A stretch of 32,000 nucleotides of DNA, taken from positions 368,760-400,759 of the forward strand of contig NZ_CP141821.1 in the NCBI RefSeq assembly GCF_035621495.1, in the 5' to 3' direction. The stretch comes from Thermococcus sp. SY098. GTDB lineage: Archaea > Methanobacteriota_B > Thermococci > Thermococcales > Thermococcaceae. The notes under the pieces are model-generated. The model was given only the letters and a program-made list of their open reading frames with translations, did no database searches and was not told the DNA's origin. The position numbers were made by a program, and so were the translations under genes. This document shows positions 21,987 through 29,403 of this stretch, piece by piece (within the stretch, counting starts at the first letter, position 1; the number at the start of each line of letters is the position of its first letter).

Positions 21987-22187
21987 TCAAACTTCCTCAA
22001 GCTTCTTCTTAACATCTTCAGTGTATCTCTTTGTTTCCTCTAATACATTCCTAAGGTTGCTGAGTTCAAGTTTGAGCTCACTCAGAGTTTTATTCATCTG
22101 ATAGAAGGCAAAAACGACAATGACAATGAGGATTAAACCTAAAATTATTGAAATCCATCCACTTGGTGTTCCACCATATGCAGGCAT
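21987..22187 (-). CDS. 66-aa TM + coiled-coil mini-protein
   Basis: MPAYGGTPSGWISIILGLILIVIVVFAFYQM is one TM helix, followed by a heptad-like helix (LSELKLELSNLRNVLEETKRY...). Starts 3 nt after the ArsR-type gene stop, with its SD inside that gene's end. Confidence 0.6.
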   Translation of the reverse strand: MPAYGGTPSGWISIILGLILIVIVVFAFYQMNKTLSELKLELSNLRNVLEETKRYTEDVKKKLEEV

Positions 22188-22190
22188 CCT

Positions 22191-22487
22191 TCACTCCTCC
22201 TTTAGATTTTTTATAATGTCATTATCGATTACAAACCTAAAAGGTTTTGCCCTGTAGTATTTTTTAGCCCTTGGATCACCGGGTTCAAGCCGGAGCTCAC
22301 TTTCAATGAGATTCGCTTTTTCAAGTTTTTTCAAATGGAGATACAAGAGTTGTCTTGAAATGTTAAGCTCTTTTGCAAGCTCATAAACATACCACTCCTT
22401 TTCACAGAGCATCTTGAGTATTTTGACTCTTATCGGAACACTTAATGCCTCCGCAACCACTGTCAGTTCTTGTATGCTTCCAACCAT
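22191..22487 (-). CDS. ArsR/SmtB-type winged-helix transcriptional regulator
   Basis: PIRVKILKMLCEKEWYVYELAKELNISRQLLYLHLKKLEKANLI is the ArsR-type HTH. No canonical CxC metal site in helix 3. Start is ATG 22487 or GTG 22496. Confidence 0.75.
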   Translation of the reverse strand: MVGSIQELTVVAEALSVPIRVKILKMLCEKEWYVYELAKELNISRQLLYLHLKKLEKANLIESELRLEPGDPRAKKYYRAKPFRFVIDNDIIKNLKEE

Positions 22488-22538
22488 TTTCACCACGTAA
22501 TCTAAATTATTGCATAAGCCAGAATTCCCTTACGTACT

Positions 22539-22548
22539 ATTATAAAAA
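22539..22548 (-). promoter_or_regulatory. candidate TATA box for the ArsR-type gene
   Basis: Minus-strand TTTTTATAAT about 40-50 nt upstream of the candidate starts. Confidence 0.3.
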
Positions 22549-22571
22549 GGGAAAATAAAAACTTTTCGAAA

Positions 22572-22736
22572 TTATTTTTTGGCGATTAGGTAGATCAGTG
22601 CACCAATTAGTATGAACGGCAACAGTAGGAAGGCTAACCTAAACAGCAGGAGGAATACTCCAAAGATTCCAAACCACCACCAGCCAAATCCCCACCTTCT
22701 TCTACCAAACATTGGGCCCCCAAATCCTCTGGGCAT
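22572..22736 (-). CDS. 54-aa RG/Trp-rich membrane mini-protein
   Basis: MPRGFGGPMFGRRRWGFGWWWFGIFGVFLLLFRLAFLLLPFILIGALIYLIAKK. GGTGAT-N4-ATG at 22736. The track's 73-aa version (start 22793) overlaps the upstream gene and is less likely. Confidence 0.6.
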   Translation of the reverse strand: MPRGFGGPMFGRRRWGFGWWWFGIFGVFLLLFRLAFLLLPFILIGALIYLIAKK

Positions 22737-22746
22737 TTTCATCACC

Positions 22747-23052
22747 CTACTCGGGTAGATACAACCAACCAACAATTTTATCATTATAATCAAGTGTCAC
22801 CTTAATCCCAAAGGCAGTCTGATATGCACTCCCAATGCTCAGCTCTTCAATTGAGTAATCACCGACAATTTTTCCGACATAGTGACCATAATTATCACTG
22901 AGCTTTTGGACAATGCCTCTTGATGTCTGGAACTTTTCAATCTTTATTCTTCTCAAGACATTCAATGCGTCTTCCTCAACTTCATCAACTGGAATTTCTT
23001 CAATCGGAAATTCCCCATATTCAACGAAGTGAAATATTTTAACAGCTTCCAT
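22747..23052 (-). CDS. PepSY-like small protein, no signal peptide (paralog of 26496-26960)
   Basis: The C-terminal ~64 aa (IEKFQTSRGIVQKLSDNYGHYVGKIVGDYSIEELSIGSAYQTAFGIKVTLDYNDKIVGWLYLPE) are about half identical by eye to the C-terminus of the 26496-26960 product. ATG 23052 has GGAGGATGA 7 nt upstream. Alternative ATG 23115 overlaps the upstream stop (ATGGTGA). Confidence 0.6.
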   Translation of the reverse strand: MEAVKIFHFVEYGEFPIEEIPVDEVEEDALNVLRRIKIEKFQTSRGIVQKLSDNYGHYVGKIVGDYSIEELSIGSAYQTAFGIKVTLDYNDKIVGWLYLPE

Positions 23053-23108: not shown

Positions 23109-23822
23109 TCACCATCTTCCTCCTCTAAATCCTCTCATACTTCTACCTCTATCATCCATTCCAGTGTTCATAGGACTCGAGATTATCTCATTATACTCAT
23201 CCTCGCTGATTACTTGGGGTTCATATGTTATACCATAATTCTGAAGCACGCTTGTGAATGCCCTTAAATGGTTCTCCGAGCCTGCCATGAGGTTTTCATA
23301 TACCTGGATTATGTCGGCATTGTCAGTCTTTGCAATCCACTCCTCCAGATCCTTGAGGTCTGTCTCCTCAATGAGTGCCCCAACCTTGAGTGCATCTTCA
23401 ATGCTTTGGCTCCCCATTGCTATAAGCTGGTCATATAAAGCCTGAAGCTCTGGGTTTGTGAATACTCCAACTTCATCTACTGCTGGATCCTCAATGCCGT
23501 ACTTTTCGAGTAAGCTTAACACTGCATCCATGTGCATCTGCTCACTGTTTGCTATGTTCCGGAATATTTGCAAACCGTACATTTCATAGAGTGTTAAATA
23601 GACATCCCTCGCCAGCTTTTCCTCTTCCCTCATCCAGAGCAGTCCATCAACCTCTTCCTGTGTGAGTGTGTCGCTTCCATAGATTGCGGCGTATGGCCTA
23701 TCCCATGTTGTGTTGCTCCCTCTATCCCATGTATCTGCCCACCATGGCATTGCTGCTACACTGCCAAATATAACACCAAACATGAGACCCAACAACCCTA
23801 AACTTAATATTTTCTTCCTCAT
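23109..23822 (-). CDS. secreted DUF2202 ferritin-like protein
   Basis: Signal peptide MRKKILSLGLLGLMFGVIFGSVAA, then LLWMREEEKLARDVYLTLYEMYGLQIFRNIANSEQMHMDAV..., the hallmark of DUF2202 (COG4902) as I recall it. Gly/Arg-rich tail RGRSMRGFRGGRW. GGAGGAGGT SD 7 nt before ATG 23822 (track start 23870 reads through the operator). Confidence 0.7.
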   Translation of the reverse strand: MRKKILSLGLLGLMFGVIFGSVAAMPWWADTWDRGSNTTWDRPYAAIYGSDTLTQEEVDGLLWMREEEKLARDVYLTLYEMYGLQIFRNIANSEQMHMDAVLSLLEKYGIEDPAVDEVGVFTNPELQALYDQLIAMGSQSIEDALKVGALIEETDLKDLEEWIAKTDNADIIQVYENLMAGSENHLRAFTSVLQNYGITYEPQVISEDEYNEIISSPMNTGMDDRGRSMRGFRGGRW

Positions 23823-23837
23823 GTTCTCGACCTCCTC

Positions 23838-23863
23838 CATATGTAACTTCATTATTACATATG
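23838..23863. promoter_or_regulatory. operator-like perfect inverted repeat, copy A
   Basis: CATATGTAA (23838-23846), 8 nt, TTACATATG (23855-23863). Begins 10 nt downstream of the TATA box and spans the expected TSS. Identical copy at 26976-27001. Confidence 0.6.
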
Positions 23864-23872
23864 TAGCCAAAC

Positions 23873-23887
23873 TTTATAAAATTTTCG
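23873..23887 (-). promoter_or_regulatory. BRE/TATA promoter of operon A
   Basis: Minus strand reads CGAAAAT-TTTATAAA (purine-rich BRE then TATA), 51 nt upstream of ATG 23822. Confidence 0.6.
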
Positions 23888-24068
23888 GTGCAAAGTAATG
23901 CCTCCAGATACAATTAGCGTTCTTGAAGATAATCGGGTTGCAATATCCTGAAAGATATACAAAAAAGCAGAACCTCTCAATCTACTTCGCTCTTTCTAAT
24001 TTTAGCAGCTTATTTAAGCATCATGATTTAATCTGCTAATAACTAAGCTGAAAAATATAAAACTGAAT

Positions 24069-25241
24069 TCAGGGCTGTTCTCTTCTTCTAACGGGCATAC
24101 GCGCTTTTCCTTTTAGGATACCTCTGCCAGCTAAATAGCAAGTTCTCAGTTCCTCCCTAAGCTTTATCATAAGCTCCTGGGCTGTGTCATAATCCCCGTT
24201 CCTTACAGCTGCTTTTATTGCCTCCATCAGTTGCAGTGCCGCTGTTACATTGACTCCTAATCTTTCCATGACCATGAGCTGAGCTTCGACTCTTATGATT
24301 TCCCTTTGTAGCTTCATCTTAATGTCGCTCATTATCATTTTTCTAATGTCCTCACCGGCAAATCTGATAACAACTTCTGCTTTGGATTTTGCGGCTATTG
24401 CAAGACCATATGCCAGTCCATACTTTCCACTGTTGTATGCATCTTTTGCATCTTCAAGTTGCTTTTCTGCTATTCTTAAGAGGGTTTTAAGGGCAGGATT
24501 TGTTGCATTCTCAGCGAGTTCTTTTGCTGTGTTCACTTTTTCCTCAGCTATTTGTATTGCCTCAAGGGCCCTCTCAGCAGTTATGTTGAGATGGAGCTCT
24601 GTGCAGTTACATTCCTGCTTTCTAAGCTGTTTCATAATGTAAAGCATTGTTTGATTCATGGTGGGGGTTCCAATTATTGTGAAGTTGCCTGCCCTGACGT
24701 GTAGCCGCTCCATAACTTTTGTAATATTCGTGGTTTGGTTCACCAGCACTATCATTGCCCTCTCACGGATTGCAAGTTGCAGTGCCTTTTCAATTCCTGC
24801 TAAATCCGTACCTGCCACGAGGATAACTTTGTTTTGTAGCTGTAGTTGAAACTTTACAGTGGCGTTTCTAATTACTGCTAAATCTGTTTCATACCTGTTC
24901 TGTCCCCACCATCTTTCAACGCTAATGCCTAAATTCTGCAGGTCTTCAACGTATTCCTCTGGAACTGCCACTGGTCCCCCAATAATAATGACCTCATCTG
25001 GGGCATAGCTGATTATCTCCGCAGTTACATTGGGATTGTAGATTCCCCAAGGAGTCTTAACTATTACAACATTCACATTTACCGTTATATTCGCAATATA
25101 ATCGGCCAATGCACAGTCCGCCTCATTATCACTCACTAAAATGACTACCATGGTTTCTGACGCATTTACAGGCGTGAATGTCAATGGGAGACCCAAGATT
25201 ATCAAGCCAAACATCACTGACAGCATTTTTTTCCACATCAT
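24069..25241 (-). CDS. secreted, sequon-rich protein with CWB2-like N-terminal modules and helical C-terminal half
   Basis: Signal peptide MMWKKMLSVMFGLIILGLPLTFTPVNA. ILVSDNEADCALADYIA...VIIIGGPVAVPEEYV...WWGQNRYETDLAV resembles cell-wall-binding-repeat-2 modules. 12 N-x-S/T sequons counted by hand. Basic tail KGKARMPVRRREQP. Own SD GGGGGTGATGGAG. Confidence 0.5.
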   Translation of the reverse strand: MMWKKMLSVMFGLIILGLPLTFTPVNASETMVVILVSDNEADCALADYIANITVNVNVVIVKTPWGIYNPNVTAEIISYAPDEVIIIGGPVAVPEEYVEDLQNLGISVERWWGQNRYETDLAVIRNATVKFQLQLQNKVILVAGTDLAGIEKALQLAIRERAMIVLVNQTTNITKVMERLHVRAGNFTIIGTPTMNQTMLYIMKQLRKQECNCTELHLNITAERALEAIQIAEEKVNTAKELAENATNPALKTLLRIAEKQLEDAKDAYNSGKYGLAYGLAIAAKSKAEVVIRFAGEDIRKMIMSDIKMKLQREIIRVEAQLMVMERLGVNVTAALQLMEAIKAAVRNGDYDTAQELMIKLREELRTCYLAGRGILKGKARMPVRRREQP

Positions 25242-25466: not shown

Positions 25467-25688
25467 TCAGGCTTCTTGAAGGACTTCATTGATGTGTTTG
25501 CTCTGATCTCTTAACTGCTGTGCCACTGAATTAGTCTGCTTGATCTCTTCAAGGAGTGCATCCAGGGATCTCTTCAACATATACAGTGAAGATGCAACTA
25601 CAATGACCAAGACTACCCAAAAGCCAATTATCAAATAATCTATCCTTGTCATTTCAGGATAAAAGGAGGAAAAATATGGCCCAGGCAT
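25467..25688 (-). CDS. 73-aa TM + coiled-coil mini-protein
   Basis: IDYLIIGFWVVLVIVVASSLYML is the TM helix, followed by LKRSLDALLEEIKQTNSVAQQLRDQSKHINEVLQEA. ATG directly abuts the upstream stop (TGAATG). Same architecture as the 66-aa protein at 21987-22187. Confidence 0.6.
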   Translation of the reverse strand: MPGPYFSSFYPEMTRIDYLIIGFWVVLVIVVASSLYMLKRSLDALLEEIKQTNSVAQQLRDQSKHINEVLQEA

Positions 25689-26333
25689 TCAACTTCCTCC
25701 CTGTTTTGCTTTTGCTATGGCTTCAGCTAAGATTTCCTTAAACTGCTCTCTGTCCAACTCATTGTTAACCTCTATCGTCTCAAGCAGCTGATCAGGCTGA
25801 GCTTCAATATTATAGTCTGCTTTTAGGATTTCAACAAGTTTTTGGGGATCTACATCATACATCTCGGCAAGTTGCTCCAATGTCAAACTCTTTAACATAG
25901 AGCCCGTTATCTCTATTGTTGTGTTATCAACCGTTACCGATATCTCTTCAGGTGATGTAGTCTCGGATGTAGTTTCTTCCTCGGCAGTTAATGCGGCAAA
26001 CGCAAAATATCCACCAGCAAGTACTAAGCTAATTAAGATTAGACTTCCAACCACTTTAGCCCTACTTTTCTTAAATGCAGATTTGAGCATGACAACCATG
26101 CTGTTGAATCCGATTATTAAATGAACTGCCACTAAACCAATCATGACAAATCCCAGATATGTATGTACTGTTTCCCAAGTGTCCTTAGTTACACCCAAGA
26201 ACGTCCACCCAATGGCGTCTGCTATTCTGCCTGACGGTGCTTGATAAAGCGCAATTCCAGATATCGCCACAAGTACAAACACCACTGTCAAAACTAAATC
26301 AACTGTCCCCCTTAACCAAGCTGGTGCCTTCAT
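25689..26333 (-). CDS. DUF4405-type membrane protein with extracytoplasmic C-terminal domain
   Basis: LRGTVDLVLTVVFVLVAISGIALY...TWETVHTYLGFVMIGLVAVHLIIGFN fits the DUF4405 pattern (H-x13-H in one helix). Third TM, then an acidic Thr/Ser linker and a helical domain. GGTGAT-N4-ATG at 26333 (alternatives 26339 and 26348). Confidence 0.6.
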   Translation of the reverse strand: MKAPAWLRGTVDLVLTVVFVLVAISGIALYQAPSGRIADAIGWTFLGVTKDTWETVHTYLGFVMIGLVAVHLIIGFNSMVVMLKSAFKKSRAKVVGSLILISLVLAGGYFAFAALTAEEETTSETTSPEEISVTVDNTTIEITGSMLKSLTLEQLAEMYDVDPQKLVEILKADYNIEAQPDQLLETIEVNNELDREQFKEILAEAIAKAKQGGS

Positions 26334-26338
26334 TTCCA

Positions 26339-26461
26339 TCACCCACAATCCTTTTTAGTGCATTCCTCTTTTTGAGCCGTTACAGGTACAGGGATAACAT
26401 TTTCTTTCTTCTCAATGATTAATGATGGCAGCAAAATTCCGAGTTTTTTCAGCAACTCCAT
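26339..26461 (-). CDS. unannotated 40-aa peptide with C-terminal CxxxxC
   Basis: Hand translation: MELLKKLGILLPSLIIEKKENVIPVPVTAQKEECTKKDCG*. GGAGGGGGG SD before the ATG. Its stop TGA is embedded in the SD/start region of the DUF4405 gene (GGGTGATGG). Confidence 0.45.
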   Translation of the reverse strand: MELLKKLGILLPSLIIEKKENVIPVPVTAQKEECTKKDCG

Positions 26462-26495: not shown

Positions 26496-26960
26496 TCACT
26501 TCATAAGGAAGAACCCCACAATATCCCCATCATAGCTTAGGAATACTTTTATTCCGTTTTGAGTCTCGTATGCTTTGTACACTTCAAGTGAGCTGAGGTC
26601 GTAGTCACCTACTATCTTTCCAATGTATTCTCCATCAAGCACCAACTTTTGCACTGTAATTCCTCTTGGAGTAGTGAACTCCTCAATGGTGACACCGCTT
26701 AGATATTCTTGTATCTGCTGCTCATCAACATTGGCTTCTCCAAGGTATTGCCCTTTGATTCCAAGCCCCATAAACTGAGGAGTTCCCTTTCCATGCTCAC
26801 CATTTTGACCATGCATGTATCTTGCTTTGACAAAGTTTTCACATGGACATTCTGTTGTGCCTGCTGTTTCTGAAGGGACACCCTGATATGCTGCAGCTGC
26901 TCCAAATACCAAACCAAATACCAAAGCCAACAACCCAATACCTAATATTTTCTTTCTCAT
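26496..26960 (-). CDS. secreted PepSY-like protein with Cys/His-rich N-terminal segment
   Basis: Signal peptide MRKKILGIGLLALVFGLVFGAAAA (paralogous to the DUF2202 leader), then TTECPCENFVKARYMHGQNGEHGKG, then a PepSY-like C-terminus homologous to 22747-23052. GGAGAGG SD before ATG 26960 (track start 26990 reads through the operator). Confidence 0.65.
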   Translation of the reverse strand: MRKKILGIGLLALVFGLVFGAAAAYQGVPSETAGTTECPCENFVKARYMHGQNGEHGKGTPQFMGLGIKGQYLGEANVDEQQIQEYLSGVTIEEFTTPRGITVQKLVLDGEYIGKIVGDYDLSSLEVYKAYETQNGIKVFLSYDGDIVGFFLMK

Positions 26961-26975
26961 GTTGAACCGCCTCTC

Positions 26976-27001
26976 CATATGTAACTTCATTATTACATAT
27001 G
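26976..27001. promoter_or_regulatory. operator-like perfect inverted repeat, copy B
   Basis: CATATGTAA (26976-26984), 8 nt, TTACATATG (26993-27001). Identical in sequence, spacer and position relative to the TATA as copy A. Confidence 0.6.
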
Positions 27002-27010
27002 TAGCTAAAC

Positions 27011-27025
27011 TTTATAAAGTTTTCG
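27011..27025 (-). promoter_or_regulatory. BRE/TATA promoter of operon B
   Basis: Minus strand reads CGAAAAC-TTTATAAA, 51 nt upstream of ATG 26960, the same geometry as copy A. Confidence 0.6.
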
Positions 27026-27250
27026 GTTCAAAAAAAGAGCACTGGATGTTCGAAATTAGCCATCAATGATCGCAAACAATTCATGTTGCACCGTTTATTA
27101 CGGAGAAGCTTCGAAAAATTTTGCTAAACAGAAAAATTTATTTGAATAGAGATCGTTAAATATTTATATTTTCTCAAGATGGAGCAGTTAAAGGTTTTTG
27201 TGAACTCAAAACTTTTATAGAATTTCACCATTATGAAATACGGTGGTTCT

Positions 27251-29113
27251 ATGAAAGGTTGGTGGGGAAGAATTTTAAGAGTTGATTTAACAAACAACAA
27301 AGTCAAAGTGCAGGAATATTCTCCAGAAATTGCTCAACTTTTCATCGGTGGAAGGGGATTGGCAGCAAAGATTCTCTGGGATGAAGTCAAGGGAGTTGAT
27401 CCTCTTAGCCCGGAAAACAAGCTTGTCATAGCAGCTGGACCATTTAACGGCCTCCCAACACCAAGCGGAGGAAAATTGGTGGTTGCCGCTAAGAGCCCAC
27501 TTACTGGGGGATATGGGGACGGAAACATAGGAACAATGGCAACTGTGCATCTTAGAAAAGCTGGTTATGATGCCATTGTTATTGAAGGAAAAGCCAAAAA
27601 GCCCGTGTATCTTTACGTTGAAGATGATAATGTAAGCATTCTCAGTGCTGAGGGACTCTGGGGTCTTGATACCTTTAAGACCGAGGAAGAGCTGAAGAAG
27701 ATACACGGCAAGAATGTGGGCATATTGAGCATTGGACCAGGTGGCGAGAATTTAGTGAAATATGCAGTTATAATGTCACAAGAAGGAAGAGCCGGAGGAA
27801 GACCTGGTATTGGTGCAGTAATGGGAAGCAAGAAGCTTAAGGCTATTGTAATTAAAGGAACAAAGGAAATTCCCGTAGCAGATAAAGAAGAGTTAAGAAA
27901 ACTAAGCAAAGAGGCTTACGATGAGATACTGAGTAAGCCGACCTATGAGTTCTGGCACCGTCAGGGAACGATGGCAGCTGTAGAATGGACAAATGAAAAC
28001 TCAGCACTTCCAACATACAACTTCCAAGACGGTTCATTCAAGTTTGCAAGATCAATTGACGGTTACACCTTAGAGGGTATGAAGGTCAAGCAGCGTGGCT
28101 GTCCCTACTGTAACATGCCCTGTGGAAACGTTGTTCTTGACGCCGAAGGATTGGAGAGCGAGCTCGATTATGAAAACGTTGCTTTGCTTGGCTCAAACCT
28201 TGGAATTGGACAGCTCAATAAGGTTGCAGTTTTGAACAGACTCGCCGACATGTACGGTCTTGACACGATATCTTTGGGCGGCTCAATAGCGTTTGTCATG
28301 GAAGCTGTTGAGAAAGGACTTCTCAAAGAAGGCCCAACGTTCGGAGACTACAAGGGAGCAAAAGAACTCGTCAAAGAGATCGCATTCAGGAGTAGCGAGC
28401 TTGGAAACTTCGCCGCTGAAGGTGTAATGAGAATGGCTCAAAAAGTGGAAGGAGGCGAAAACTTTGCAATGCACGTTAAAGGATTAGAGGTCAGTGGTTA
28501 CAACAGTTATATCTATCCCGCAATGGCACTTGCATTTGCAACATCATCAATCGGTGCCCACCACAAGGAAGCATGGGTTATTGCTTGGGAAATCGGTACA
28601 GCACCAATTGAAGGAGAGCAGGCAAAGAAGGTTGAGTACAAGATCACATATAGCCCAGAAAAGGCTGCAAAGGTTATTGAGCTGCAGAGATACAGAGGTG
28701 GACTGTTCGAGATGCTCTCTGCATGTAGGCTGCCATGGATTGAGGTTGGACTAAGCATTGACTATTATCCAAAGCTCCTGAAGGCAATAACCGGAGTCAC
28801 ATACACATGGGGCGACCTCTTTGCAGCAGCTGACAGGCTCTATGCATTGATTAGAGCTTACTGGGTTAGAGAGTTCAACGGAAACTGGAGCAGGAGGATG
28901 GACTATCCACCAAAGAGATGGTTCATTGAGGGACTCAAGAGCGGGCCATACAAAGGCAAGCACCTTGAGGAGGACAAGTACGACAAGCTGCTCAGTGAAT
29001 ACTACAAGATGCGCGGCTGGGACGAGAGAGGAATCCCAACTAAGGAAACACTCCAGAAGCTCAAGCTTGACTTCGTCATTCCAGAGCTTGAGAAGGTTAC
29101 GGAGCTTCATTAA
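27251..29113 (+). CDS. for: tungsten-containing formaldehyde:ferredoxin oxidoreductase (AOR family)
   Basis: [62 protein letters not shown].. is very close to my memory of P. furiosus FOR over the full length. GGTGGT SD before ATG 27251 gives 620 aa. CTTTTATAGAA TATA about 35 nt upstream. Confidence 0.9.
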
Positions 29114-29130
29114 TCTTCTCTTTTGAAAAC

Positions 29131-29140
29131 TTTTTTATTT
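29131..29140 (+). terminator. oligo-T tract after FOR (terminator, or TATA for the next gene)
   Basis: TTTTTTATTT begins 18 nt after the FOR stop. It also lies about 33 nt upstream of the MoaD-like ATG, so its role is ambiguous. Confidence 0.3.
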
Positions 29141-29172
29141 GCCTGTTGAAGACGTTCTTAGAGGTGATGCTC

Positions 29173-29403
29173 ATGATAAGAATTAAACTCATGGGTGCTT
29201 TGGCTCACTTAGCTGGATCAAGCGAGATTTATATTGAAGTTGATAAACCGAAAACAGTGGATGAGGTATTAAAGGAGATCGTCAAGGGTTACGACAAACT
29301 ACATGACAAGATAATTATGGTCAACGGAAAAGTGGCGAGAGGAGACGTTATTGTGAAAGATGGGGATGAAATAAAGGTAATGCCGGTCTTAAGTGGTGGC
29401 TAA
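29173..29403 (+). CDS. MoaD/ThiS-type ubiquitin-like beta-grasp protein with C-terminal Gly-Gly
   Basis: MIRIKLMGALAHLAGSSEIYIEV...VNGKVARGDVIVKDGDEIKVMPVLSGG*. MoaD pattern ending in GG. GAGGTGAT-N4-ATG at 29173 (the track TTG start at 29146 is unlikely). Confidence 0.75.
   Translation: MIRIKLMGALAHLAGSSEIYIEVDKPKTVDEVLKEIVKGYDKLHDKIIMVNGKVARGDVIVKDGDEIKVMPVLSGG

Follow-up and report, generated by a model that had tools for sequence, protein, structure and literature searches.

A stretch of 32,000 nt from Thermococcus sp. SY098 (contig NZ_CP141821.1, positions 368,760–400,759; hereafter the window, G+C content 40.6%) carries two copies of a leader segment, placed in front of two neighbouring operons on the minus strand. 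Operon A begins with the gene of a ferritin-like DUF2202 protein and operon B with the gene of a 154-aa secreted protein. It is probable that the duplicated segment represents an archaeal promoter combined with a repressor operator, and that the protein recognizing this operator is the small ArsR-type regulator encoded in operon A. Three observations bear on this assumption: both copies contain the same 26-bp palindrome, the transcription start mapped for orthologous promoters falls into this palindrome, and the same palindrome recurs near the genes of homologous regulators in archaea and in bacteria.

The two copies, called here cassettes A and B, align without gaps when shifted by 3138 nt against each other. 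Identical bases were registered at 89 of 105 positions (23791–23895 versus 26929–27033) and at 57 of 60 positions of the core (23835–23894 versus 26973–27032), which reproduces the hand count, with its three core mismatches, made in an earlier sequence-only reading of this DNA. The whole region of similarity is longer (23751–23895 versus 26889–27033, 115/145 identities, 24 signal-peptide codons included), and beyond both its ends the resemblance drops to the background level. Repeat families D1 and D2, which comprise both cassettes, are the longest direct repeats within the window, and a search of the window against itself for additional cassettes left their number at two within 32 kb. All the elements named in the earlier reading, i.e. 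the transcription factor B recognition element (BRE), TATA box, inverted repeat, Shine–Dalgarno (SD) region, ATG codon and a signal peptide of the MRKKIL..GLL type, are present, and both genes lie on the minus strand. In the direction of the genes each copy is composed of ACCGAAAAy, TTTATAAA, 9 nt, the palindrome, a 15-nt segment with GGAGG, ATG and codons for MRKKIL..GLL..FG...AA. Identity between A and B is 95% in the core, 75% in the signal-peptide region (67% for the signal peptides themselves) and 47% in the SD segment, which is the sole cassette part with a strong difference between the two copies (7/15). The mapped elements are as follows.

23751–23895, minus strand: cassette A, whole similarity region with BRE region, TATA box, spacer, operator, SD segment, ATG and 24 signal-peptide codons of the DUF2202 gene
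26889–27033, minus strand: cassette B, same elements, preceding the gene of the 154-aa secreted protein
23838–23863, no strand assigned: operator A palindrome; predicted start at 23850 on the minus strand (palindrome base 14), 28-nt 5′ untranslated region (5′ UTR)
26976–27001, no strand assigned: operator B palindrome, same sequence as operator A; predicted start at 26988 on the minus strand, 28-nt leader
23873–23880, minus strand: promoter A TATA box TTTATAAA, −30 to −23 from the predicted start (like the next element, read from the letters)
23881–23889, minus strand: promoter A BRE region ACCGAAAAT
27011–27018 and 27019–27027, minus strand: promoter B TATA box and BRE region, respectively
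23823–23837, minus strand: SD segment of A, GAGGAGGTCGAGAAC, matching A-type orthologs at 12–14 of 15 positions
26961–26975, minus strand: SD segment of B, GAGAGGCGGTTCAAC

Both cassettes hold the identical perfect palindrome CATATGTAACTTCATTATTACATATG, which can be written as CATATGTAA-N8-TTACATATG with half-sites of 9 bp. No third site with up to 3 mismatches was found in the window (0.03 expected by chance), and two matches appeared in none of 100 shuffled sequences. The position of the palindrome relative to the start of transcription is provided by differential RNA sequencing (dRNA-seq) of Thermococcus onnurineus NA1. The primary start 683946 was registered there for TON_0731 (DUF2202) with a 28-nt 5′ UTR (PMC5316973, supplementary table), and the primary start 681314 for TON_0728-0729 (DUF4405 and small membrane protein) with an 89-nt 5′ UTR (PMC5316973). 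The A-type palindrome of NA1 occupies positions 683933–683958 (1510–1535 in locus L153) and the B-type palindrome positions 681301–681326, the latter having been placed by mapping locus L004 onto NA1 through two gene starts, so that either start coincides with palindrome base 14 of 26. The TATA box of NA1 is situated between −30 and −23 relative to the mapped start. Start positions in the window were carried over from T. onnurineus by homology and identical spacing. The geometry predicted in this way for promoter A fits the Thermococcus consensus, which places the TATA box between −30 and −20 (PMC5316973), and the sequence CCGAAAAyTTTATAAA is kept in orthologs of this promoter. With the starts of T. 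onnurineus as reference, the operator lies between the TATA box and the coding region and overlaps the start site, which is the arrangement typical of promoter occlusion. Since transcription starts at base 14 of the palindrome, a dimer bound to it would occlude RNA polymerase.

For a wider comparison, archaeal cassettes were collected from loci encoding regulator homologs and by two pattern scans. The same cassette was found in Thermococcus, Pyrococcus abyssi, Archaeoglobales and several uncultured archaea, always arranged as BRE/TATA, palindrome, GGAGG, ATG and MRKK followed by a hydrophobic stretch. In 21 distinct cassettes of Thermococcales the left half-site CATATGTAA is invariant and the right one is either TTACATATG or TTACACATG, which differ in one position; the internal 8 nt and the spacer between TATA box and palindrome are variable. 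The first archaeal gene behind the cassette always codes for a DUF2202 protein with a signal peptide or for a protein of about 155 aa with a signal peptide, and a third type, sought in metagenomes, was absent from all 18 loci inspected. The proposal of a leader re-used as a module was therefore well founded, since in many Thermococcales the same unit heads the one or the other of these two genes. Later genes are drawn from the same small set, and sufficiently long loci end in the genes of the ArsR homolog and a small membrane protein.

The candidate for the DNA-binding protein, which the sequence-only reading had not identified, emerged from a palindrome scan of a genome collection, which yielded at least 120 loci. 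These loci are a sample; each of them was checked for homologs of the window proteins, and the counts that follow refer to the matches listed. A homolog of the window ArsR protein is encoded in 57 of 120 palindrome loci, and in 50 of them its distance from the palindrome does not exceed 600 nt. As many as 46 of the 57 regulator-bearing loci are bacterial (Bacillota, Alphaproteobacteria, Actinobacteria and Chloroflexi), and the 50 loci with adjacent regulators span these bacteria together with Thermococcales, Archaeoglobales and Methanophagales. No other protein of the window gene set is common to these 50 loci. Bacterial homologs are 34–52% identical to the window regulator (tblastn; loci within L008–L126). 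In bacteria the palindrome stands immediately upstream of a two-gene unit, which encodes the regulator and a single-pass membrane protein of 65–95 aa. This partner was found in 29 loci by a crude filter, and in most bacterial loci its C-terminal coiled coil ends in (I/V)EK(I/M)LKEV(E/D). The regulator gene precedes the partner gene in Bacilli and archaea, and the order is opposite in Lachnospiraceae and Peptococcaceae. In the examples from Firmicutes the palindrome centre forms a hexamer, TAAAAT or TAAATT, with TTGACA 17 nt ahead of it, which means that the operator there covers the −10 box. Such co-occurrence in two domains of life is strong comparative evidence that this ArsR subfamily recognizes the palindrome. 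The possibility that bacterial palindromes are chance matches was considered separately and rejected for 46 loci, since a regulator homolog is encoded at each of them.

Representative bacterial loci are L028 (2284–2618), L095 (5825–6406), L102 (4521–5117), L029 (4977–5616) and L056 (2624–3268). In Methanophagales (ANME-1) the palindrome was observed directly upstream of genes for short ArsR homologs (L077, 4275–4300 and 6194–6219; L033, 4564–4589). Locus L077 has it twice on one contig with near-identical flanks, as if a unit containing the regulator had been duplicated in tandem.

The regulator, its partner and the region upstream of both genes have the following positions.

22191–22487, minus strand: ArsR-family winged-helix regulator, 98 aa, proposed operator-binding repressor (HTH_5, PF01022, 49.1 bits at a cut-off of 22, E 5e-13)
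21987–22187, minus strand: 66-aa membrane protein with one membrane pass and a coiled coil at its C-terminus, conserved partner of the regulator; begins 3 nt past the ArsR stop codon
22497–22575, minus strand: intergenic region with BRE/TATA-like TTCGAAAAGTTTTTATTTT and TTTTTATAAT, no operator; nearly identical in L145 and L148

Neither the regulator nor its partner matches a curated specific family. Scores of the regulator remain below cut-offs for the NCBIfam metalloregulator model NF033788 (44.1 bits, cut-off 55), the SdpR model NF033789 (30.3 bits, cut-off 100) and the Phr model (35 bits, cut-off 320), and its closest solved structure is 2p4w (E 8e-7). Alignment of the 57 operator-linked regulators shows that the recognition helix SRxLLYLHLxKLE is kept and that H51 is invariant. 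No conserved Cys was found when metal ligands were sought in this alignment, the single Cys of the window protein being replaced by Ala or Ser in other members, and the sole invariant His sits in the recognition helix. By its sequence, therefore, this protein is not a canonical metal sensor. For the 66-aa partner there is no Pfam or NCBIfam family. The bacterial partner reached 18.7 bits with PspB (PF06667; gathering score 25.6) and a likewise sub-threshold likeness to PspC; the window protein gave no match to PspB. The region 22497–22575 is likely a separate promoter of this gene pair, because in T. onnurineus a primary start lies 35 nt upstream of TON_0734 (start 685389, transcript TON_0734-0736 with regulator, partner and HypE, 35-nt 5′ UTR; PMC5316973). 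It contains, in addition to the two BRE/TATA-like stretches, an ACGTAA...TTACGT inverted repeat with arms 30 nt apart, which is loosely similar to the operator half-sites.

Based on these data one can assume the following order of events. Each cassette would consist of BRE and TATA box, a 9-nt spacer, a palindrome centred on the start, a 28-nt leader with GGAGG and a Sec-type signal peptide, and the two operons transcribed from these copies would belong to one set of genes for iron/redox proteins outside the cytoplasm. The 98-aa regulator (22191–22487) most likely binds the palindrome as a dimer. Covering positions from −13 to +13, this dimer would admit TATA-binding protein (TBP) and transcription factor B (TFB) but block RNA polymerase, thus repressing by occlusion. 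The membrane partner might deliver the signal, for instance by holding the repressor at the membrane or releasing it. It is well known that Phr and MDR1 work by excluding RNA polymerase, and that archaeal sites downstream of the TATA box repress transcription while activators bind upstream of BRE. For Phr of Pyrococcus furiosus and MDR1 of Archaeoglobus fulgidus the likeness consists in a site downstream of the TATA box, over the start, with an expected block of RNA polymerase after TBP and TFB; the window regulator, however, falls outside these families and its operator has a different sequence.

Similarity with other systems is also partial. ArsR/SmtB repressors (SmtB, CzrA, BigR and the non-metal HlyU and PagR) are likewise small winged-helix proteins of the HTH_5 family, whose genes are linked to the target operon, and here too a dimer may be presumed, as comparison suggests, on a two-fold symmetric site overlapping the core promoter. 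Unlike them, the window regulator has neither conserved Cys nor other metal ligands and no curated equivalog, and a search of the literature did not retrieve its operator sequence. The SdpR–SdpI pair of Bacillus subtilis, in which an ArsR-type autorepressor is sequestered at the membrane, also combines a regulator gene with the neighbouring gene of a membrane protein. It offers a plausible model for the signal input to a repressor that has no sensor of its own, and sequestration may operate here as well, although SdpI is a multi-pass protein and partners of the window type are single-pass coiled-coil proteins of about 66–85 aa. With PspB/PspC the partner has in common the membrane helix at the N-terminus, the short coiled coil in the cytoplasm and a total length of about 75 aa, but the scores are sub-threshold, and PspA and PspF are not encoded in the neighbourhood.

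Some facts weigh against assigning the operator to this regulator and repression to its binding. In 63 of the 120 palindrome loci no ArsR homolog is encoded in the available DNA; some of these loci are truncated contigs and some may be chance matches. The promoter of the regulator itself has no operator in this clade, and autoregulation is thus not established there. No binding experiment on this regulator or operator was found in the literature searched, and searches on the operator sequence, on DUF2202, on MJ0754, and on ArsR together with Thermococcus or PspB returned no characterization of the regulator. Expression data for T. onnurineus point in the same direction: in CO and formate media TON_0731-0733 were registered at 0.19–0.61 of the YPS level, and TON_0728 and TON_0729 were up 1.8- to 5.6-fold (PMC5316973, supplement). 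Since the responses of two operons were not parallel, the shared operator either is not their sole control or was largely unoccupied in those media.

This disparity, together with the negative outcome of the search for binding experiments, can be read in favour of a different transcription factor, encoded elsewhere and served by this operator, the linked ArsR-type protein then regulating something else. Such a reading is unlikely, because in 50 of the listed loci from bacteria and archaea the palindrome has a member of this ArsR subfamily next to it, and no other protein of the window gene set is shared by them. It is also improbable that the bound protein activates transcription instead of repressing it. 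The genes of the two T. onnurineus operons were expressed in all three media, moderately to highly (PMC5316973, supplement), as might be expected from an activator, but the site spans −13 to +13, i.e. lies between the TATA box and the coding region, and in bacteria it covers the −10 hexamer.

The same transcriptomic data contain one more feature. The S-layer-like TON_0730 and the DUF2202 operon have their maxima in sulfur medium (25550 and 5141 normalized counts) and are down 4- to 6-fold on formate, and the DUF4405 operon is up on CO (PMC5316973, supplement). Such a pattern hints at some connection with sulfur or the redox state.

To distinguish selection from recent exchange between the copies, four genomes with both cassettes were compared: the window, L145, T. 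barophilus CH5 (L148) and Thermococcus sp. M39 (L150). In the 60-nt core orthologous pairs share 55–59 bases (47–49 in pairs with the divergent A copy of M39) versus 47–56 in paralogous pairs. In the 15-nt SD segment the corresponding values are 12–15 versus 5–8, and in the 72-nt signal-peptide region 64–70 versus 47–54. In this comparison the core of window B matches the core of window A at 55 of 60 positions, that of L145 A also at 55 and that of L148 A at 56. Identity between A and B is therefore equal within and between genomes, and in every segment A groups with A and B with B. Since orthologs are closer than paralogs and the identity between A and B is uniform, the copy event should predate all four lineages, and later homogenization is not visible. 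Both copies of the clade begin the palindrome spacer with TAAT (not TATT) and have GTTTrGCTA between TATA box and palindrome. These states are absent from other Thermococcales, which places the duplication in the ancestor of the T. barophilus clade. The two cassettes of T. onnurineus-like genomes have little in common past BRE, TATA box and half-sites. As judged from its sequence, the window itself is from a Thermococcus of the T. barophilus group; its 154-aa protein is 98% identical to that of a metagenome-assembled Thermococcus and 87% identical to that of T. barophilus CH5.

Most probably, then, the copy arose in the ancestor of this clade, after which purifying selection would have kept the core while the SD segment and the signal peptide diverged. 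The alternative that recent duplication or ongoing gene conversion explains the non-coding identity has some support in the contrast between the core (95%) and its flanks (47% in the SD segment, 75% in the signal peptide), in the clade-specific TAAT and GTTTrGCTA shared by both copies, and in one site of the spacer between TATA box and palindrome, where A and B both have G in L145 and both have A in L148. Yet grouping goes by cassette type and not by genome in every segment, the A–B identity is the same within and between genomes, and half-sites, TATA box and BRE are kept across orders, in loci where no recent exchange is possible. We consequently give this alternative a low probability. The mosaic look of cassette A, with its B-like core and A-like SD segment, had also been considered as a sign of conversion, and it was rejected by the four-genome comparison. 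The sequence-only reading had offered selection on the regulatory sequence or recent gene conversion, and had suggested looking in related genomes for co-evolution of the copies. Selection turns out to be the best explanation of the high non-coding identity, and recent conversion is not supported, since orthologous cassettes are closer than paralogs across four genomes.

Much less probable than a protein-binding site with another ligand or another sign is an RNA hairpin, formed by the palindrome in the 5′ UTR near the SD sequence and controlling translation or mRNA stability. The 26 nt do fold at −8.6 kcal/mol (37 °C, z-score −4.7) and stand directly before the SD segment. In T. onnurineus, however, transcription starts at palindrome base 14, so that the right arm alone is transcribed. 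Besides, TTACACATG, found in 10 of 21 Thermococcales cassettes, introduces an A–C mismatch into the stem (T-to-C in the right arm), which is never compensated; no Rfam match was obtained at E ≤ 1, and the bacterial palindrome overlaps the −10 box and not the leader. An A/U-rich stem of 9–10 bp is also unlikely to hold at growth temperatures of Thermococcus. The hairpin reading was rejected on these grounds. Finally, an end of a mobile element or a dispersed repeat unrelated to the genes, which the earlier reading had named as the finding that would overturn it, is practically out of the question, since nothing beyond the repetition itself speaks for it, both of the only two copies in 32 kb stand exactly at gene starts, plasmid and phage collections gave no match, and the gene context is constant, with the same gene families behind the cassette in other archaeal genomes.

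The genes behind the two operators, which the proposed repressor would control, and the gene between the operons are listed below.

23109–23822, minus strand: operon A gene 1, signal peptide and DUF2202 ferritin-like domain, 237 aa (PF09968, 218 bits at a cut-off of 22, E 8e-65)
22747–23052, minus strand: operon A gene 2, unnamed alpha+beta domain protein of about 101 aa, no signal peptide; the listed open reading frame reaches 23115
22572–22736, minus strand: operon A gene 3, Gly/Trp-rich small membrane protein, 54 aa from an internal Met; position kept in orthologous operons
26496–26960, minus strand: operon B gene 1, 154 aa, signal peptide, low-confidence Cys/His linker and alpha+beta domain at residues ~75–154
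25689–26348, minus strand: operon B gene 2, DUF4405 membrane protein, half of cytochrome b with two conserved His (PF14358, 62.3 bits at a cut-off of 26.7)
25467–25688, minus strand: operon B gene 3, 73-aa single-pass membrane coiled-coil protein
24069–25241, minus strand: 390-aa secreted protein between the operons, weak CWB2/S-layer-like matches; no operator, conserved neighbour

The first gene of operon A had been recognized from the translation as DUF2202, and its score, far above the Pfam gathering score (218 versus 22 bits), leaves this assignment standing. The protein also matches 3q4n (MJ0754) in the PDB with E 6e-63. Its motifs EEEK, SEQMH, IEETD and SENH, read by eye, have Glu and His residues spaced like in ferritin-like di-metal sites. 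The signal peptide implies that the putative di-metal centre is located outside the cytoplasm. The 154-aa protein gave no match in Pfam and NCBIfam searches. In its AlphaFold model a disordered Cys/His linker is followed by a confident domain of a helix and six strands (residues ~75–154, pLDDT ~90), for which Foldseek found nothing significant in the PDB. The label “PepSY-like” given to this protein in the sequence-only reading accordingly finds no support, as neither PF03413 nor a structure of this fold was matched. The same reading maintained that downstream of the cassette the genes diverge completely. This statement is incomplete, because over 68 aa (E 2e-16) the product of operon A gene 2 shares 50% identity with the C-terminal domain of the 154-aa protein; the two operons are thus not fully unrelated, and paralogy reaches past the cassette.

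Orthologs of operon A gene 2 are present in L004, L108, L122 and L139, and L122 has the entire gene set in one operon. Loci of Thermococcus JdFR-02 (L117/L135) and of Archaeoglobales begin with the 155-aa type. Wherever DUF2202 comes first, the domain protein comes next and has no signal peptide. This arrangement suggests an insertion of DUF2202 behind a signal peptide that was already in place, or a deletion in the reverse sense, and either would account for the presence of one leader on two different proteins. The 154-aa protein has homologs in Methanofervidicoccus abyssi (67% identity) and Methanothermococcus okinawensis (64%), which are closer to it than some Thermococcus homologs. This suggests a transfer of its gene between Thermococcales and Methanococcales.

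The membrane His residues of the DUF4405 protein, as read from the translation, lie in ETVHTYLG and AVHLIIG. Heme b binding is on record for members of this family, and these proteins are similar to FezC of the ferrosome (PMC11334425). Both DUF2202 and DUF4405 are also found in gene clusters of ferrosomes. The 73-aa protein encoded next is possibly a distant paralog of the 66-aa partner of the regulator. Direct BLASTP comparison of these two window proteins registered no similarity, and an ortholog in L004 bridges them, matching both (40% and 33% identity). In close relatives the DUF4405 gene is split or truncated (L002, 2764–3285; L078, 4611–5236; L148, 10502–11139; L150, 10500–11239), L002 is devoid of the DUF2202 operon, and the DUF2202 gene of L078 differs in its upstream region and its signal peptide. 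These comparisons give the impression of a gene set that varies within this clade and is partly in decay. One more duplication of the cassette was noticed on two contigs of a single metagenome-assembled archaeon (L018, 2166–2191, and L024, 1337–1362). Palindrome, SD segment and the secreted protein of 161 or 167 aa are near-identical there, and the upstream flanks diverge shortly past the palindrome.

On the plus strand the region 27233–29403, divergent from cassette B, codes for a homolog of AOR-family W/Mo oxidoreductases (626 aa, 27233–29113) and an 85-aa ThiS/MoaD-like protein. The operator is 230 nt away, and the same pairing is seen in L002, L078, L148 and L150. This gene content was noted before. 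In their description of a Thermococcus neighbourhood, Makarova, Galperin and Koonin (2015; PMC5898192) list a cytochrome b half (arCOG04002, DUF4405), a ferritin-like protein (arCOG03957), an ArsR protein (arCOG01679), a secreted protein (arCOG07800), a small coiled-coil protein (arCOG08354) and AOR, and propose iron-dependent electron transfer for it. This neighbourhood is present in the window, the AOR-family gene being that at 27233–29113. The passages of that paper devoted to the neighbourhood deal with gene content and make no mention of a promoter, operator, operator duplication or bacterial regulator/partner pairs.

Taken by itself, the architecture is an ordinary one, with two operons of one regulon and a regulator from an uncharacterized ArsR subfamily. 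Its value for Thermococcus is that a conserved but uncharacterized archaeal gene set has now been provided with a definite operator, a candidate for its regulator and a mapped promoter geometry, and that one leader, comprising promoter, operator, ribosome site and signal peptide, is seen to have persisted while another gene took the first place behind it. Genetic tools are described for both T. onnurineus and T. barophilus, and regulation of the genes proposed for extracellular iron-dependent electron transfer becomes testable in these two species. The broader interpretation is more tentative. The palindrome, the ArsR-type protein and the membrane coiled-coil protein may perhaps form a self-contained signalling module of Bacteria and Archaea, with the recognition helix and the 9-bp half-sites almost unchanged, in which the membrane protein would sense some condition of the membrane or envelope and sequester the repressor. 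The palindrome centre would then serve as the −10 box in the Firmicutes examined, and in archaea the same palindrome, centred on the start, would have been extended to the control of a secreted redox system of di-iron and cytochrome b proteins. It is uncommon for an operator sequence to be conserved between bacteria and archaea, and this cross-domain recurrence is the less ordinary part of the finding: the same operator beside a regulator/membrane-protein pair in many bacteria points to a small signalling module that is widespread and has so far escaped description.

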